From assembly GCA_046757165.1 (NCBI GenBank), contig JBHHXT010000059.1:1-24518 (forward strand): a stretch of DNA of 24,518 nucleotides. Reading direction: 5' to 3'. The notes beneath the pieces were generated by a model that saw nothing but the letters and a program-made list of their open reading frames with translations, was not told the DNA's origin and did no database searches. The position numbers and the translations under genes were made by a program. The stretch comes from a bacterium. Its GTDB lineage: Bacteria; Zhuqueibacterota; Zhuqueibacteria; Oceanimicrobiales; Oceanimicrobiaceae. The number at the start of each line of letters is the position of its first letter. Within the stretch, counting starts at the first letter, position 1. Shown here piece by piece: positions 996 to 24,518 of the stretch.

Positions 996-3900
996 CTACG
1001 GCATATCAACAAGTTCGGTAATTTTTTCCAGGAATTTTTTCTGCGCAGATTTAGAAAGCCCTTTAAACTTCTCGATAAACCATTCTAAAGCAAGCGATTC
1101 AAGACGCTCTTCAATACGACTAACTACCTTTGATAGTCGTATCCCATGCTCGTCCGTAAGTGTTGCCGGTGGATTTACGACTTTCGAGTGCAATCGATTA
1201 GCATCCCCAACAGACATTTTATTAATATCCAATACATTAGTCTCAATAGACTCAATCCAGGTTAAACTATCATGCTTCCGTTGTGTCGAGATATTGCCGA
1301 CAAAATTTTCGAACATCTCGTCAACCAGCCACGGCAGCGCCTCTTCTTCCCCAAAAGTAGCGTCAGCCTCTTGACGTAACTTCTCGGCTAATGATTCAAA
1401 TTCTCGCCAGGACAAGCTATTATCATGCAATTGATTATAATAGCGCTTGTATGCCTGCAGCGCTCGTTTCATGATGCGCAAATCATCGACATCTATTTCA
1501 CAGCCCTCGAATGCATTTATCAGGGACTCTATTTCCTCAATATGTACATTTAATTCTTCTTCTGTACTTATCTTAGAATTCCAGAGTCGTGAAGCGCGTT
1601 CCGTCAGACTAGCTTCAGCCTCCTGCAACTTGACTAAAAAATCCGAAAGGTTAGTACGAAGATCAGAAATTTCATTCATCTCAATACGTCGGGACATTCC
1701 CTGTAGTTTGGCAGAGAAATTTTTCCCCACATCCCTTAATCCTCGAATCTCGGCGACACGCATTAGTCGAAAGGCATCAGCATGTTGATCGAGCCAGGAA
1801 CGAATATCCCGAACTAACTGATTTGCCTCTGCAATCGTTTCCGCCTGCCGAATGACGTGTTTAGTGTGGCGTTCAAGTTCTTCCGACAGCGCAGTCAGTC
1901 CCAGTTTATTTAAATTACCACCAAGCAGACGAAGCATTTTATGCTTAAAATCTCCAACCACTTCCGGAGAGTCATTTGCAGGTCTTTGCCCTGCAAGCCA
2001 GTTTGGGAAAATCTGCACAACCATCTGGGCAGTCCGTTCGATATGAGGTTCCAACTCTTCAATCTGGTGTTTCTCCCAAAGTGGCGACTCGGCAATCATT
2101 CGCTCTTTTAAATTTAGAAGTTCTGCAGCTCCCCAACTTAGCAAGCTTACATTCTTCTTGTTTTCTCCTGTTTCAAGTTTGCTGAAGGCAGTATCTTGCT
2201 TTTCCTCCATTTTTCTAAGGGCCTTGACTGCTTCATGGGACTGGTCTTCAAGGTGGATGAAACGATAACTACATGTCGGTGGCACGGGAATACGTTCCTT
2301 AAGTTCCGAAGCCCTTCTAAGGAAAGAGAACTTGCCCATATAACTCTCTGCCTGCTCCCATTCATCCAGGAGATTCTCCCACTCTGACGATGCCTCCCCT
2401 ATAAAAGCCAACTCCACACTCTGAAGCGCGGCGATATCAAGAAACTTTCTCCTGAATACACCGTCCTGAAGCCACTGGGTAAGGGCATACTGCTGTCCAT
2501 CCCGAACTATGACAAGCTGTTCACTCCTTGGAGCCACAAAGACACCTAACAGCAATCCTGCGGAGGCGATATTTGCTCCGTAAGGGGGGAGACACAATTG
2601 CCTTAAAACTTCTCCAACGAGAAATTGTTGGTGGTCTGATTGGAGAATGTCATCCCATTTCTCGGTCACAGTTCGCGCAATTGGATGCGTTGGCCTTCTT
2701 GAAATTTTACCGGTTTTGGTAAAGACGGCCCATGAACTGTTTAGCGTTGTTAGAGCTCGATTCTTAATCTTGACCGGCTTTGAAATCACAGCATCGTAAT
2801 CAAGACTTCCCCTCAGTAAATCGATAATTAGTTCCTGACAACTGTCTGCTGCATTACCTCGAGCCGTTGAAAACCCATCAAAAGGAAATGGCAACGACCG
2901 CTTATATATCCGCTCAAACAGTTCCGTGCCGACCCGACTTAATCGATTGGCTTCGAGTTCGTCTTTTAGGGCTGTTATATATCTTCGCTGTTTGGTTAGC
3001 TCTTCTATCTGGCTTCGGACTACCTGGTGCATTTTCTCTTGGTGAGCTCCAATTAGATTGCCAAAGCGGGCACGGTCTTCCGCACTGATGGAATCTTCCA
3101 GGACCGCTAATTCCGCTAATGCTTGACCAAGTATTCCTTCCTCATCGCAAAGAAGAATGACAAGCATTGGCAGTGCGTTAACCCCAACACCAAGATCACG
3201 AATCGTCGCACGAAGAGTTTTCTTTACATCAAATGTAACAGTTTGAGGATCACGGCTCTGTTCAACATAGCAATAAATAACTGTTCCACGTGGCTCATTA
3301 ACATCAATGGCCTTCGTCCACCTATCTGCAGCGATTCTGATCTGGGGCTCAATGGTCTCTAAATTTGATGTCACTCCTTGATAGCGCCACTCTGTCGTAG
3401 TAATTGAATTTCTTTCGGCAAAATCACACTCCAAATCGCCGAGCAGATCACACCACTCTGCCGCCTTGCTGGCAAACAACTTTGCCTTGCCGCTTTCATC
3501 GTAGGTGCTCGCCACCCGCTGCCTGATGAACGAAAGAAACTGTGTGCGCGGAACCGCATCACCTAAAATATCAAACTGTTTGAAGCGCTCGTCCCACTCG
3601 AGGATATTATATTCATCTTGAAGCAGGTCGATCCCTTCACGAGTACGATAGCTTGACAAACCTGCAAACTTGGCCAATGCGTTGATTGACTCATCACGAG
3701 ATACAACCTGTAATCCCATTTTCGATGCCAAGACCACGGATCGCAGGATACGGGTAACATCTTCCGGTAAGCGTGCGCCACATCGGGCGTATACCGATGC
3801 ATAGGCGTGGGTAATTGAGCCTTGCTGACCGCTCTCCTCTGAAGAAATCAACTCTTGCTGAAGTTCGTCGGACCATAAACTCACCGGTGCTAGTACCCAT

Positions 3901-5294
3901 GTTCTCTCGCCCTCTGCCTCCAACTCCTGAGAACGCTGAAAAAAATCGCCAAGCAAGGTTAAAGCTGATCGTTCTTGCAGATGTTTCCCCGCAGCGGTCA
4001 AAGAAAAAAGAAACCATGTTGAAAGCGGTGAGAGAGGCCAACATCCTTTTCGGATAACTGTATGAAACGAATCAACATCCGTCCAAAGCCTGTAATTGCG
4101 GGACTGGGGGAACCAGCTATGCAGATCTGCGGCGATAGTCTGCGATTCCTCGTAGGCTTGTTCGTCGTTAAACCAGGAATCAAAGCCTGTTGTCTGTTGC
4201 TTCTCAATGAGATGAGCGATAAGGGTCTCTAAATTGATTGAAAGATATACCTTGCTGGCAGATTGATAGCGGGTGATGTACCGAAGGATGTCATTTTTAT
4301 ATTCTGGTGCAACTCGTTGCACGTAAGCGTTAAGCTCAAACTGAATGAATCCGACAAAGGTTGTGGTATCAGCATGTGCCTGAACCCCTTCGAATAAATC
4401 CTGGAGAACGCCGCTACCCGCAACCTGGCTCCGGACTGTGGCAAATTCGGTATAGCGACCAAATTCATCGAACAGGATGAGAGCATGCCTAAAAGGTTTG
4501 TCTGTTCCGCAATACTCACGGGACACAACATCAATCACGTCCCGTACTGATTCTCCACCCAGTGCACGAATGGGCATTCCTTGGCTGGCAAAAAATTCCT
4601 GAACTTTACCGTAAACGTGTTCATCCTGCTCTTCGAGTGCACCTAATATCGTATCAATGTCAGCCATATCAAAGCTGTCAAGCAGTTCCTCGGCCACACT
4701 TTCACCAGCCATACGAATTAGAGTTGCTGCTTGCTTGAAGCGTGGGCGTAAGTCATCAAGAGGACTGGTGTCTAAGTTCTTCGCGCGAAGCTGCAAAATG
4801 ACCTGTCGAGTGACCTCGGCCGTCAAATCGAAGTTTCGCATACCATTTAATGCAACAATGAGGCAAGGCCGACTTTCCTCTTGCAGCATAGCCTGTATTT
4901 CGGTACCAATATTTGCGTCAGCGGCTTTCATGGCAGAAATGATTGATTCGGCCGTAACACCAGATGGTTGGGAAAGAATCGTTGCCAGGGTAAGCGCCAA
5001 ATGCGATTTCCCTGTTCCATAACCAGCAATCGCTAAAGTGAAAGGTTGATCCTCAAGTCCAGAGCACCGCCGTACTATCTTACGCGCAAAGCTGGCTGTG
5101 TCCTGAAGCTGATGACCATGAGCATGCCCGATATCGTCCTGCGTCACGCCATGATATTTTGGCCCGTGGAACACAAAGGCCTCTGCGGCTTTTCGGCGTT
5201 TCTCTCCATCCGTCAGAAACCAATCAATACTGACGGCTCCATTAAAGAGTCGATCGCCTCGGAATTTTACTATGTCATGTAAGGTTAGTCGCAT
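996..5294 (-). CDS. Large P-loop ATPase, divergent SspC/BrxC-like paralogue with a long helical C-terminus (about 1432 aa)
   Basis: Walker A AGYGTGKSH and Walker B LILFDEFGRY. WPLSP and LQERSALTLL correspond to WPLHP and QNERSIFSYL of the 17513-20887 ATPase. ATG 5294 follows AAGGA at 6 nt spacing and is preferred over TTG 5300. Confidence 0.8.
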   Translation of the reverse strand: MRLTLHDIVKFRGDRLFNGAVSIDWFLTDGEKRRKAAEAFVFHGPKYHGVTQDDIGHAHGHQLQDTASFARKIVRRCSGLEDQPFTLAIAGYGTGKSHLALTLATILSQPSGVTAESIISAMKAADANIGTEIQAMLQEESRPCLIVALNGMRNFDLTAEVTRQVILQLRAKNLDTSPLDDLRPRFKQAATLIRMAGESVAEELLDSFDMADIDTILGALEEQDEHVYGKVQEFFASQGMPIRALGGESVRDVIDVVSREYCGTDKPFRHALILFDEFGRYTEFATVRSQVAGSGVLQDLFEGVQAHADTTTFVGFIQFELNAYVQRVAPEYKNDILRYITRYQSASKVYLSINLETLIAHLIEKQQTTGFDSWFNDEQAYEESQTIAADLHSWFPQSRNYRLWTDVDSFHTVIRKGCWPLSPLSTWFLFSLTAAGKHLQERSALTLLGDFFQRSQELEAEGERTWVLAPVSLWSDELQQELISSEESGQQGSITHAYASVYARCGARLPEDVTRILRSVVLASKMGLQVVSRDESINALAKFAGLSSYRTREGIDLLQDEYNILEWDERFKQFDILGDAVPRTQFLSFIRQRVASTYDESGKAKLFASKAAEWCDLLGDLECDFAERNSITTTEWRYQGVTSNLETIEPQIRIAADRWTKAIDVNEPRGTVIYCYVEQSRDPQTVTFDVKKTLRATIRDLGVGVNALPMLVILLCDEEGILGQALAELAVLEDSISAEDRARFGNLIGAHQEKMHQVVRSQIEELTKQRRYITALKDELEANRLSRVGTELFERIYKRSLPFPFDGFSTARGNAADSCQELIIDLLRGSLDYDAVISKPVKIKNRALTTLNSSWAVFTKTGKISRRPTHPIARTVTEKWDDILQSDHQQFLVGEVLRQLCLPPYGANIASAGLLLGVFVAPRSEQLVIVRDGQQYALTQWLQDGVFRRKFLDIAALQSVELAFIGEASSEWENLLDEWEQAESYMGKFSFLRRASELKERIPVPPTCSYRFIHLEDQSHEAVKALRKMEEKQDTAFSKLETGENKKNVSLLSWGAAELLNLKERMIAESPLWEKHQIEELEPHIERTAQMVVQIFPNWLAGQRPANDSPEVVGDFKHKMLRLLGGNLNKLGLTALSEELERHTKHVIRQAETIAEANQLVRDIRSWLDQHADAFRLMRVAEIRGLRDVGKNFSAKLQGMSRRIEMNEISDLRTNLSDFLVKLQEAEASLTERASRLWNSKISTEEELNVHIEEIESLINAFEGCEIDVDDLRIMKRALQAYKRYYNQLHDNSLSWREFESLAEKLRQEADATFGEEEALPWLVDEMFENFVGNISTQRKHDSLTWIESIETNVLDINKMSVGDANRLHSKVVNPPATLTDEHGIRLSKVVSRIEERLESLALEWFIEKFKGLSKSAQKKFLEKITELVDMP

Positions 5295-5304
5295 TCTCAA
5301 TCCT

Positions 5305-6144
5305 TTAGATTAAGTCTTCGTACATACGTCCCCACGTCGCGCCCGCAACGGCCCGAGGGCGCATTATCCACGGATTCATTTGCCGGTCAATCGCAAGAAC
5401 GCCTTTCCTTTCAAGTAGATCTATAGCACGGTGCGACTCGCCTATATTCCATCCCGGAATAGACTTCCATCCCGCGTTATGATCCAAGTCAGTAAGTGTT
5501 ATCTGAGTTGCTTTGGGAAAATGATCGGCAATAAGTTGCAGTATCCATGCACCGTACGCAAATCCAAATTCTTCAGCAATGGGCGCTGACTGCCTGACCA
5601 CTATGCCCGTATCCTCCGATAACACGCCGCAGGTATGAAAGGCCGCCTCATCTTCATACATTCTTACAATCGGCCCTATAATTCCTCTGCGCTTGCTGTC
5701 GTAAACAAGAGACAAATGATCTTCCAGCGCGGAACGTGAGAAACGCATTCCGAGAACCTGATTCCCGGCGAAAAAAGTTTGATACCAGGCATCGGCACCA
5801 GTCAACACCCCACAGAGATTAAGGTGAGCAATCCATTGTGTTACTCGTTCTTTGAGATGGGGGTCCTCCAAAAACACAATACGCCCAAAAGGGGTCAATT
5901 CCGGGCGTTTCACTGCTGAACGAGCATTCCCAGCCAACTGGATCAACCCCATGCCACGACAGTAATCTAAAATGGCGGGCACCTTGCCGCTGGATTTACC
6001 CGTAGGAATACCTGTAACAGCTGAAATGTCTTGATAATTACCAGTTTGACCGGAAGCGGCAAAACGCAACATGGCATTAATGTATTGACGTTCTGGAATA
6101 AATGTCCTATGGAAGTTGCGGGGAAGACGCATCGGCTTATTCAT
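5305..6144 (-). CDS. Divergent DUF4007/SspB-like winged-helix protein (279 aa)
   Basis: NFHRTF and LTPFGRIVFLEDPHLKERVTQWIAHLNL align by eye with FSGHQTF and VSSFGRKLLDEKNGWDPYLEDNASWWLLHWKL of the 20887-21783 protein. It has a similar size and the same position directly before an ATPase. RBS GAGGAG; 8-bp overlap with the upstream gene. Confidence 0.7.
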   Translation of the reverse strand: MNKPMRLPRNFHRTFIPERQYINAMLRFAASGQTGNYQDISAVTGIPTGKSSGKVPAILDYCRGMGLIQLAGNARSAVKRPELTPFGRIVFLEDPHLKERVTQWIAHLNLCGVLTGADAWYQTFFAGNQVLGMRFSRSALEDHLSLVYDSKRRGIIGPIVRMYEDEAAFHTCGVLSEDTGIVVRQSAPIAEEFGFAYGAWILQLIADHFPKATQITLTDLDHNAGWKSIPGWNIGESHRAIDLLERKGVLAIDRQMNPWIMRPRAVAGATWGRMYEDLI

Positions 6145-22135: not shown

Positions 22136-22582
22136 TTACTCTGGCCACGTCCCGTGCGGGAGAAGTCTCCGCGCCCAGTGCTTTTGGACACCAACAAACA
22201 CCCACGCCGGGATGATCTGCCCTGAGATACATACCGGAACGAGGACACGTTTGTAGAGACTTGAACCGCCAGGAAGGAATCCCTCCAAACGGTCTATGGC
22301 GGGAAGGCGGGTCTCTGGATCGTCGAAGGTGAGAAGCTCCCCGTATACGAGGCCACAGTCGCCCGCTGTGGCGTTTTCCGGTACCGGCTCAAGGATATAT
22401 GGATATGGTTGCCAAGTCCTCCAAAGCGCGCCTGTGCCTGCCTGTGCGTGTCTACACGCAAACAGGTGGCCGCGGACGACCATCTCTTTCAAGAGGATGA
22501 GACGGCGGAACCGCTTGTGGTTTTAGTAGCCTCGCTTGGATGTCGTAGAAAAAGGTTTTTTTTCTTTGGCTTGCACATTCAT
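22136..22582 (-). pseudogene. Degraded gamma-glutamylcyclotransferase (GGCT/AIG2-like) gene
   Basis: The C-terminal part has VYGELLTFDDPETRLPAIDRLEG...LYKRVLV...AWVF. In frame from ATG 22582 it reads ...FSTTSKRGY*NHKRF..., an eroded form of the family motif FVYGTLKRGxxNH, with TAA at 22525-22523. Confidence 0.75.
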
Positions 22583-22669: not shown

Positions 22670-22698
22670 TTGACATATTGGCGGCTCTTTGTTATATT
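22670..22698 (+). promoter_or_regulatory. Strong sigma70 promoter
   Basis: TTGACA (22670-22675), 17 bp, TATATT (22693-22698), with an extended -10 TG at 22690-22691. Confidence 0.75.
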
Positions 22699-22769
22699 TC
22701 GAATTGCGAATAACTCTAGCAGGGCCGTTCCTGCCTATACGGACAAGGACGGTCGAGGCGGACGCATGC

Positions 22770-22849
22770 GCGCCCGCAGATGCCTTGTGCCGCGAGGTAC
22801 AGGGACGGTCTCTGCTAGAGCCGTTCGCACATCTGCGGGCGCTTTTTTT
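22770..22849 (+). ncRNA. Structured RNA resembling C4 (P1/P7) or CI (P4) antisense RNA: three-way junction ending in a U-tract
   Basis: A perfect 13-bp closing stem (GCGCCCGCAGATG 22770-22782 / CATCTGCGGGCGC 22830-22842) encloses hairpin CCTTGTGCC-GCGA-GGTACAGGG (GNRA loop, G-U pairs) and hairpin ACGGTCTCT-GCT-AGAGCCGT. T7 follows. Segment 22800-22820 is complementary to upstream 22714-22733. Confidence 0.6.
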
Positions 22850-22889
22850 ATGCCCTGAAGATGCGAAAACCTATCTGCAGGAGGTCTTC

Positions 22890-23147
22890 ATGCGTAACAT
22901 AAGCGGCTTGCGTCATGGCAGCGAAGGTATCGGCGATTGTTTCGAGACAATTAATGATGCCAAGAGGAGGGTTATGCCTCTCCTTGTTCTCATGAGCAGT
23001 ATGGCGGAACTCAACCCCACCCTCGGCGCGGTCTTTACAAACGAGGATCTCGGGGACATCGGGATGTTCCTTAGAGATGAATTTGGCGAAGTATTCAAGG
23101 CCGTCGAAAGAATAGACGCCATTTGCAGGCGGAATTTTATCAAGTGA
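22890..23147 (+). CDS. Hypothetical protein (85 aa) downstream of the structured leader
   Basis: GGAGG at 22880-22884 precedes ATG 22890. The product MRNISGL...RRNFIK looks helical and has no recognisable motif. Confidence 0.6.
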   Translation: MRNISGLRHGSEGIGDCFETINDAKRRVMPLLVLMSSMAELNPTLGAVFTNEDLGDIGMFLRDEFGEVFKAVERIDAICRRNFIK

Positions 23148-23437: not shown

Positions 23438-23782
23438 ATGACCGGAGAGATGTACGCCATAACGCAGGATGGTGTTTCCGACGTCGGCGAGAGATGGCCC
23501 CTTCATGCCGCGGTAGCCCGGGCAACAGGAGGGACGTTAAAGCCCTTTGACCGTTACCAGGGGCCGTACATAGTTATGGGCGAGGACGTTAGGGCCGGGA
23601 CTCCACCTTATGACGCCCCTGTTCTGCTGGTGGGGGTTAAAAGGCTCTGGATACTTGAGGACAGGTACGGCAAAGCGACGATATACCGCGAGGACACCGA
23701 TGAAACTTCTGAGCCCTTTGAGTGGGACGATGAAATAACGGCCGTGAGCCTCGCAAAGAAGATACTGGAGGAAAAAAGATGA
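23438..23782 (+). CDS. Hypothetical protein (114 aa)
   Basis: Strong RBS AAGGAGGAG before ATG 23438. The stop overlaps the next ATG (ATGA). No motif recognised. Confidence 0.75.
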   Translation: MTGEMYAITQDGVSDVGERWPLHAAVARATGGTLKPFDRYQGPYIVMGEDVRAGTPPYDAPVLLVGVKRLWILEDRYGKATIYREDTDETSEPFEWDDEITAVSLAKKILEEKR

Positions 23783-24518
23783 AGATATTGCATACAGGGG
23801 ATATTCATTTTAAAGGTGACCTTCTGGAAGAGATCGCTAAATGCACTAACCATCTCCTGAAGACGGTGAAGGAGGCCTCTCCGGATGTGGTCGTGCTTGC
23901 AGGAGACCTTTTTGATGAGAGACAGACTTATGATTCTCAGACCTTTCTGGCGGCCATGGACTTTGTTCGCAGGCTTTCCGGCCATTCACCTGTACTCATC
24001 GTAAAGGGAACGCCTTCGCACGACGGCCACACCCTTGAGTTTCTGAGAAGCGAAAGGGTGTATGTGTCTGAAAGTCCGGAACAGGTCGTTTTGACGAAAG
24101 ATAGGACATTAGAGTCCTATGCCGGAGGCCCTCTATCGAGAGCGAAGGCGCTATTTTCATGTCTTCCCTCGGTGTCCAAGGCCGGTGTGTTGTCCGTCAT
24201 GGGAGGAGACCTCAACGGTTCGAATTTCAACACCGTGGAGTTGATGAGGGACGTTCTGGCCGGCTGGGGAGAGTCCAATGCAACCATAAAAGCGTCAGGC
24301 GTCCCGGTTATCCTGGTCGGTCACTTGAGCGTAATGGGTGCTACTCTTTCGACTGGTCAACAGATGGTAGGAAGGGAAGTCGAGCTCGGAGTTGGAGACC
24401 TGAGGATGGCCAGGGCGGACCTTGTCTGCCTGGGACATATCCACAAGGCGCAGAACTGGTCGGAGGTCTTTTACTGCGGGTCTCTTACCCGCCTGAACTT
24501 CGGCGAGGAAGAGGAGAA
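23779..24518 (+). CDS. SbcD/Mre11-like calcineurin-family metallophosphoesterase (nuclease); runs off the window end
   Basis: Translated by hand because it is absent from the ORF track: MKILHTGDIH, VVVLAGDLFD, IVKGTPSHDG, ILVGH, CLGHIHKAQ, YCGSLTRLNFGE. RBS GGAGG; open to the last base. Confidence 0.88.
   Translation, partial: MKILHTGDIHFKGDLLEEIAKCTNHLLKTVKEASPDVVVLAGDLFDERQTYDSQTFLAAMDFVRRLSGHSPVLIVKGTPSHDGHTLEFLRSERVYVSESPEQVVLTKDRTLESYAGGPLSRAKALFSCLPSVSKAGVLSVMGGDLNGSNFNTVELMRDVLAGWGESNATIKASGVPVILVGHLSVMGATLSTGQQMVGREVELGVGDLRMARADLVCLGHIHKAQNWSEVFYCGSLTRLNFGEEEE

Follow-up and report, generated by a model that had tools for sequence, protein, structure and literature searches.

Positions 1–24,518 of contig JBHHXT010000059.1, from a bacterium of the family Oceanimicrobiaceae (assembly GCA_046757165.1), are referred to here as the window. 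This stretch carries nine genes in a row on the minus strand, closely spaced or slightly overlapping, in the order sspB(B1)–sspC(C1)–sspD–sspA–F–G–H–B2–C2. The last two genes, B2 and C2, encode a second, divergent SspB/SspC-like pair. Our computational comparisons show that this pair is confined to a single clade of FGH genes and tracks FGH, not sspBCD, in both position and divergence. They also show that it probably derives from the lineage serving BrxB–PglZ–BrxL in the ‘sspBCDB-brxCZL’ islands. We propose that F–G–H–B2–C2 is probably a five-gene restriction module, in which the BREX-derived pair loads or positions the HerA-type nuclease H, and, with similar confidence, that this module is paired with ordinary, exchangeable sspABCD genes for phosphorothioate (PT) modification. 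A role for B2–C2 in modification itself is unlikely.

An earlier reading of the DNA, made from the sequence alone (the sequence-only reading), had placed two open reading frames (ORFs) behind H and noted that they repeat the motif order of SspB and SspC. Both ORFs and all of the motifs were found. B2 carries FHRTF (residues 11–15) and DPHL..W..H (94–107); the SspB counterpart of the former is GHQTF, so the motif in common is HxTF. C2 carries GYGTGKS (93–99, Walker A), FDEFG (277–281), WPLSP (421–425) and QERS (442–445), and thus keeps Walker A, Walker B (DE), WPLxP and ERS, together with the arginine of a QGRF-equivalent motif, which we infer to be an arginine finger. The Walker motifs are invariant in 32 of 32 aligned C2 homologues.

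Homology to SspB and SspC beyond chance, as the same reading had supposed, is borne out by profiles and structure. Pairwise BLAST against the operon’s own SspB and SspC gives only E 2e-4 for B2 and for C2 alike, and the PADLOC profiles give E 3e-5 (SspB) and 1e-9 (SspC). The score of B2 against Pfam PF13182 (DUF4007) is 25.8, under the gathering cut-off of 27, and 89 of 101 members of the B2 family match DUF4007 at E ≤ 0.001. The AlphaFold model of B2 (pLDDT 79) matches SspB (6JUF) over its full-length fold (Z 18.4, rmsd 4.1, 268 residues aligned; Foldseek E 3.5e-7), the next structural match being BrxA (Z 8.8). B2 is thus predicted to have the SspB/BrxA fold. Acidic positions common in SspB (..RDV.., ..ELGL) are substituted in B2; no catalytic role is assigned to these positions, and nicking by B2 is unsupported. 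Fused forms of B2 numbered 0 among 7,406 candidate proteins of 525–2000 aa, which is weak evidence.

The C2 profile aligns with that of SspC over 725 columns (E 3.5e-13; residues 80–934), and its Atlas neighbours are DUF6079/BrxC (0.97–0.99). Pfam and NCBIfam gave no match to C2, and no solved structure matched its profile. C2 is nonetheless a predicted SspC/BrxC-type AAA+ ATPase with intact motifs. Beyond about residue 934 it continues into a tail of some 500 aa that differs from the SspC C-terminus. The charged character claimed for this tail holds (31% D/E/K/R versus 25% in the remainder of the protein); the 300-aa add-on that had been described does not, as a different tail replaces the end of SspC. 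From its composition, and from an Atlas lead, scoring below 0.9, to helical domains of BrxC, the tail may be helical.

With regard to origin, the sequence-only reading had excluded a recent duplication, and rightly so. A recent copy of sspBC was considered and rejected on the weak BLAST scores, the trees and an approximately unbiased (AU) test, in which C2 forced together with the local C1 clade was rejected (p 2.7e-6). Furthermore, the 20 largest direct-repeat families shown include no long DNA repeat common to the two pairs, again as claimed. By these comparisons B2–C2 are not duplicates of the operon’s SspB/SspC. Their nearest kin, as judged from trees and profiles, are the second DUF4007/BrxC pairs (B2x and C2x) of islands that combine sspBCD with BrxB/PglZ/BrxL. 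In the C tree (LG+G4, as for all trees reported; 22 of 54 rows thinned out beforehand), a clade (98/97) unites C2 with four of six C2x, apart from 14 SspC (98/92), while the sole BrxC4 sampled groups with C2 at 56/83, which is no support. A quick B tree (14 rows thinned) places B2 among B2x and away from the B1 set of 29 rows (Shimodaira–Hasegawa (SH) support 96). The C2 and C2x profiles align end to end, including the tail (1297 columns, E 1.6e-46).

Three plasmid records matched C2 and one matched B2. In two of these records the match is the second pair of an island ordered sspB–sspC–sspD–DUF4007–small gene–ATPase–pglZ–brxL–desulfurase, and the third holds a broken copy of the second half of that island. 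A broad B2 profile run on 301 genomes found six more B2x second copies, one identical to a plasmid record. In genome G718 the B2x–C2x–PglZ–BrxL block and sspCD lie on different contigs. In locus L193 (AP024153, 1733–14380) a PglX-like methyltransferase precedes, in this order, genes for a B2x-like protein, a small protein, a C2x-like ATPase, a 795-aa protein and BrxL; this block resembles a B2x–C2x island with methylation in place of PT. The data fit descent of B2–C2 from a BREX-like, restriction-side BrxA/BrxC lineage, and not from the neighbouring modification genes. Hence, of an earlier suggestion that a modification-derived module was recruited to the restriction side, the recruitment agrees with position and divergence, and the modification ancestry gives way to a probable BrxA/BrxC one.

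Position was assessed in 88 loci fetched by C2, 8 from genomes and 80 from metagenomes (the best 80 of 419), which cluster to 68 at 95% and 22 at 70% C2 identity and are therefore not independent. In all 85 loci that extend far enough, B2 immediately precedes C2 (84 as ORF calls; in L047 as a 77-aa fragment by tblastn), and H lies upstream of B2 in 81 of 82, the exception (L050) having a transposase in H’s place. In L087 and L089, sspBCD(A) lies downstream of C2, yet the order F–G–H–B2–C2 is unbroken. Separately, L065 (1–14459) has the C-terminus of H, B2 and a shortened C2 on one strand, and the remainder of H with G, F, D and C1 facing them on the other, an arrangement that reflects either an inversion or a mis-assembly.

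The reverse search used a G profile against sets of 401, 301, 201 and 191 genomes (1,094 in all, four phyla, one seed genome per set). All eight strong non-seed matches (at least 433 bits; G430, G442, G465, G484, G630, G880, G909 and G1015) have B2 after H; in G630, H is spread over two contigs. Weak matches (at most 130 bits) numbered 18 and, with G736 and G821 left out because the sequence ends too soon after H, B2–C2 follows H in none of the 16 informative ones. These are canonical sspFGH, and two of the loci, checked with PADLOC, gave strong matches to the SspF/G/H models. No FGH-type B2 was found by a whole-genome B2-profile search of 12 weak-match genomes of the G170 phylum; one genome (G807) has a BREX-type B2 copy elsewhere. 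A C2 profile, run without a positive control, had no match in five canonical sspFGH genomes. On the G tree, a single change separates the 15 rows that have B2–C2 from the 14 that lack it (SH 100; a long-branch warning applies), so that this is a single evolutionary event and not 29. The pair thus follows one FGH clade.

Two of the eight strong-match genomes have damaged pairs: the B2 of G430 is fragmented where a contig ends and its C2 was not detected, and in G880, C2 is split by insertions. In both, the G and H frames are full-length. This bears on the possibility that B2–C2 is a brake or proofreader, which binds self DNA (PT-marked or replicating), keeps FGH inactive and so protects the host. 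An essential restraint would account just as well for the strict linkage to one clade and for the purifying selection, and unrestrained SspFGH is toxic (PMC8092258). A strict antitoxin would, however, hardly allow G and H to stay full-length beside a broken B2 or C2, although the sspC of G430 is broken too, and the sister pair accompanies a different effector, PglZ/BrxL. We regard a brake as rather improbable.

The broken copies could also be taken as signs of a decaying hitch-hiker from an ancestral BREX-like island. This is very improbable indeed: dN/dS of B2 and C2 against five relatives is 0.07–0.17, with C2 at 0.07–0.16, similar to that of G and H, so that both genes are under purifying selection; the Walker motifs are invariant, as noted; and the two families are large (849 and 658 homologue clusters).

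Divergence was compared in the 13 loci that have all eight genes (some partial), using identity matrices, Spearman correlation and Mantel tests. B2 and C2 correlate with F, G and H (rho 0.66–0.85, Mantel p 0.001–0.007) and not with B1, C1 and D (rho −0.02 to 0.11), whereas C1 tracks B1 (0.86) and D (0.87). The correlation breaks at the D|F boundary, though F lies 8 kb from C2, and is unchanged when two near relatives of the window are removed. Over the same loci B2/C2 are more conserved (0.54/0.48) than B1/C1 (0.39/0.33), and the C1 proteins are dispersed across the SspC tree.

These results disfavour the sequence-only suggestion that B2–C2 is a second specificity module, borrowing SspA and SspD to write a second PT motif. 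Its fold and motifs are the same as those of SspB/SspC, sspBCD is present in all 13 complete loci, and in BREX-4 BrxC with BrxP suffices to make PT (PMC12914056). Nevertheless, the pair shows no co-variation with SspD (0.01–0.11), it is the better conserved of the two pairs, it stays behind H where sspBCD is elsewhere, and it was not seen in the examined sspBCD loci that lack both this FGH clade and PglZ/BrxL. In addition, foreign SspC/BrxC did not restore PT synthesis in B. salyersiae (PMC12914056), a result that speaks against divergent lineages readily sharing one PAPS reductase. We consider a second writer improbable.

Several observations weigh against the proposed five-gene restriction module. 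The presence of sspBCD throughout the complete loci means that presence alone does not separate the modification from the restriction side. The 13-locus correlation leans on deep splits: in a denser set of 36 dereplicated metagenome and genome loci out of 48, B2–C2 (rho 0.81) and G–H (0.92) remain tight, but H–C2 reaches only 0.46 and G–B2 only 0.32, with clearly discordant pairs (for example, H at 76% versus C2 at 52% identity). An AAA_21 + DUF4276 gene pair separates H from B2 in three loci (L005:7324–9146, L006:4649–6441, L011:7283–9063; domains scanned in L005 and L011). Two of the six C2x, those of G718 and L193, fall outside the C2 clade, and the root is not fixed. Docking of H on C2 through a PglZ-like or BrxB-like N-terminus was considered and set aside, as profile comparison of the H N-terminus with that of PglZ or with BrxB found no homology (probability <1%, small alignments). 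Canonical SspFGH defends and damages unmodified DNA with no such pair (PMC8092258). Finally, BrxC is needed for methylation and defence alike in BREX-1 (PMC11842806), and this, with its part in PT synthesis in BREX-4, means that the family can act on the writing side.

The looser H–C2 and G–B2 link in the denser set indicates that B2–C2 is kept behind H but exchanged as a cassette. Such reassortment against FGH, the ability of canonical FGH to work alone and the tolerated inserts between H and B2 would suit a semi-independent sensor or backup, for example for phage replication intermediates, that boosts or triggers H from outside the core reaction. Against this, none of the eight non-seed genomes has an intact locus of this FGH clade without B2, and Pfam, NCBIfam and PADLOC scans revealed neither a nuclease nor a toxin domain in the pair itself. 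A sensor of this kind is, in our view, unlikely.

Returning to the five-gene module, F, G and H of this clade differ from canonical components (about 21–27% identity; weak PADLOC scores, where canonical loci reach E < 1e-200). The nuclease motif of H lies at 1157 (RRPDL) and 1181 (IECKLG), its Walker A at 1473 and its Walker B at 1691; PD, ECK and both Walker motifs are intact in 22 of 22 aligned H proteins. Its N-terminal and nuclease parts align with canonical SspH, the ATPase does so over 63 columns only, and the motor scores best with DndH. The N-terminus of F (window 15472 to ~15050, minus strand) matches the sulfur-binding domain (SBD) profile NF045808 at E 2e-5, far under the cut-off, and the same SBD-like segment occurs in five of six other long F proteins scanned (L065, L096, L104, L170, L172). 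From this weak resemblance, the segment is a candidate PT reader. Other forms of F were observed in passing: in L097 (8875–13446), L102 (7824–11927) and L106 (7814–12322), of the same clade, it is fused to a NERD nuclease and tandem protein-kinase domains, and in L054, L055, L083 and L087 it is short, without the N-terminal extension. A stand-alone 156-aa SBD-like protein precedes B2x in L133.

A mechanism can be outlined on this basis. SspA and SspD with B1 and C1 would write single-strand PT, as described in PMC8092258. B2 would serve C2 as the adaptor that binds DNA; C2 would form oligomers on the DNA and, by means of ATP and its long tail, would load, position or license H, the HerA-type translocase-nuclease. 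H would then cut PT-lacking DNA. The PT mark might be read by the SBD-like domain of F, by G or by B2. The loader or scaffold role of C2 is drawn by analogy. MCM is loaded by ORC. BrxC oligomerises and has been proposed as an ORC-like scaffold or loader for BREX (PMC11842806; PMC12839542).

A broader and more tentative possibility is that two anciently diverged winged helix-turn-helix (wHTH)/AAA+ machines are dedicated to PT defence in this clade: SspB/C as writer and B2/C2 as a portable, BREX-derived reader-loader that scans PT density and loads whichever effector is attached. The effector would be PglZ/BrxL in one lineage and the HerA-nuclease FGH in another. If true, the modification and restriction roles of BrxC would be split into two genes, testable apart, and there would be a mechanism for self/non-self discrimination with only 10–15% of sites modified.

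Among known systems the closest is SspABCD–SspFGH (Wang et al. 2021, PMC8092258), which likewise groups sspA–D and homologues of F, G and H in a single operon and has an H with nuclease motif and translocase. The present locus differs in having two extra conserved genes, so that its restriction block counts five genes and not three, in an F/G/H that forms a separate clade with an H motor unlike canonical SspH, and in an F that often has an SBD-like or NERD-kinase N-terminus. The ‘sspBCDB-brxCZL’ islands (PMC12914056; e.g., NC_011961, NZ_CP112879) share sspBCD followed by a second DUF4007 and a second BrxC-type ATPase, but have BrxB/F–PglZ–BrxL as effector, where the window has F–G–H, and their B2x and C2x are separated by a small gene. 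Yuan et al. 2026 (PMC12914056) name these islands in one sentence and, in the part seen, leave the second pair uninterpreted. BREX type 4 (BrxP–BrxC–PglZ–BrxL) shares DUF4007 and BrxC components and PT modification, but its modification is served by a single BrxC and a single DUF4007, the latter often fused to the PAPS reductase, and it has no FGH. The window, for its part, contains no PglZ, BrxL or BrxB/F and is therefore not a BREX-4 locus.

The BREX-related capture (BRC) system and the Orc/Cdc6–HerA capture systems (Rakesh 2026, PMC12839542; Rakesh 2024, PMC10853773) likewise combine an Orc/Cdc6-clade ATPase, a triple wHTH protein and HerA/FtsK, and localisation of the restriction apparatus is the role proposed for the ATPase in these papers. 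BRC differs in its PglZ, active STAND NTPase, GNAT/TGT and stand-alone HerA. Pfam, NCBIfam and PADLOC scans found no PglZ, STAND NTPase or GNAT/TGT among the nine ORFs of the operon, and PglZ, BrxL and the small protein of L109 had no tblastn match in the window’s genome at E 1e-4. The 2024 capture systems have an inactive restriction endonuclease inserted in the ATPase, between AAA+ and wHTH. The capture-system sections of the two papers, as available, do not describe FGH and sspABCD with a second B/C pair. The literature searched holds no FGH with a second SspB/SspC-like pair; the Rakesh supplements may list such cases, and the search covered non-subscription papers. A conserved five-gene FGH–B2–C2 restriction module is apparently previously undescribed.

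How FGH and BREX tell self from non-self, and which roles BrxA/BrxC play in restriction and in modification, are open questions in the field. Whereas BREX-1 uses one BrxC for both jobs, here they appear split between two B/C pairs, and either pair could be removed without the other. The locus also connects Ssp, BREX and FGH into a single modular family, with the effector swapped, in either direction, under a conserved DNA-binding/ATPase pair. Because B2/C2 and this FGH clade receive low scores or none from the usual profile tools, the family, with hundreds of members in several phyla, is easily missed.

The system is present once in the window’s genome, and PADLOC finds sspA, B, C and D all in the operon. 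The features are collected in Table 1. The 3′ end of H overlaps the start codon of B2. For C2, a TTG start at 5300 would give 1434 aa and the ATG at 5294 gives 1432 aa; most close homologues have 1426–1434 aa.

Table 1. Genes of the operon in the window (feature, position, strand, basis of assignment).
C2, BrxC/SspC-type ORC/Cdc6-clade AAA+ ATPase, 1432 aa	996..5294	-	profiles, motifs, trees
B2, divergent DUF4007/SspB-fold (BrxA-like triple HTH/wHTH), 279 aa	5305..6144	-	profile, AlphaFold model
H, SspH/DndH-type, PD..ECK nuclease motif and HerA-type motor, 1817 aa	6137..11590	-	profiles, alignment
G, SspG-like, member of the B2–C2-carrying clade, 538 aa	11587..13203	-	profile, G tree
F, SspF-like P-loop protein, SBD-like N-terminal ~100–150 aa, 759 aa	13193..15472	-	profiles
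SspA, cysteine desulfurase, 387 aa	15476..16639	-	profiles
SspD, PAPS-reductase family, 281 aa	16646..17491	-	profiles
SspC (C1), ATPase, 1124 aa	17513..20887	-	PADLOC profile, E 4e-289
SspB (B1), DUF4007, 298 aa	20887..21783	-	profiles

C2 was found in 0 of 166 other genomes of the window’s phylum and had no match in 50,697 phage records; G had no match in plasmids. At 86–97% identity, C2 occurs in L001, L002, L004 and L008, assigned by record titles to Gammaproteobacteria, Syntrophobacterales, Ca. Desulfolinea and an archaeon; this scatter, set against the 166 genomes without C2, reflects either recent horizontal spread or, in some cases, binning error. A third, distant SspC/BrxC-like ATPase of 1197 aa lies behind a 134-aa gene in L099 (G171:C99, 403–3993), whose genome carries the nine-gene system too. 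In G534 a contig ends with only the C-terminal half of a distant C2.

Promoter and terminator predictions in the window were no more numerous than in shuffled sequence, and no tRNA was found there. Upstream of sspB are three short ORFs, at 22136–22492 (minus), 22689–23147 (plus) and 23438–23782 (plus), two of which were scanned and had no Pfam match, and a calcineurin-like metallophosphoesterase gene (23779–24516, plus) that runs off the window’s end. The same region holds a 27-nt imperfect inverted repeat (22705–22731/22803–22829).

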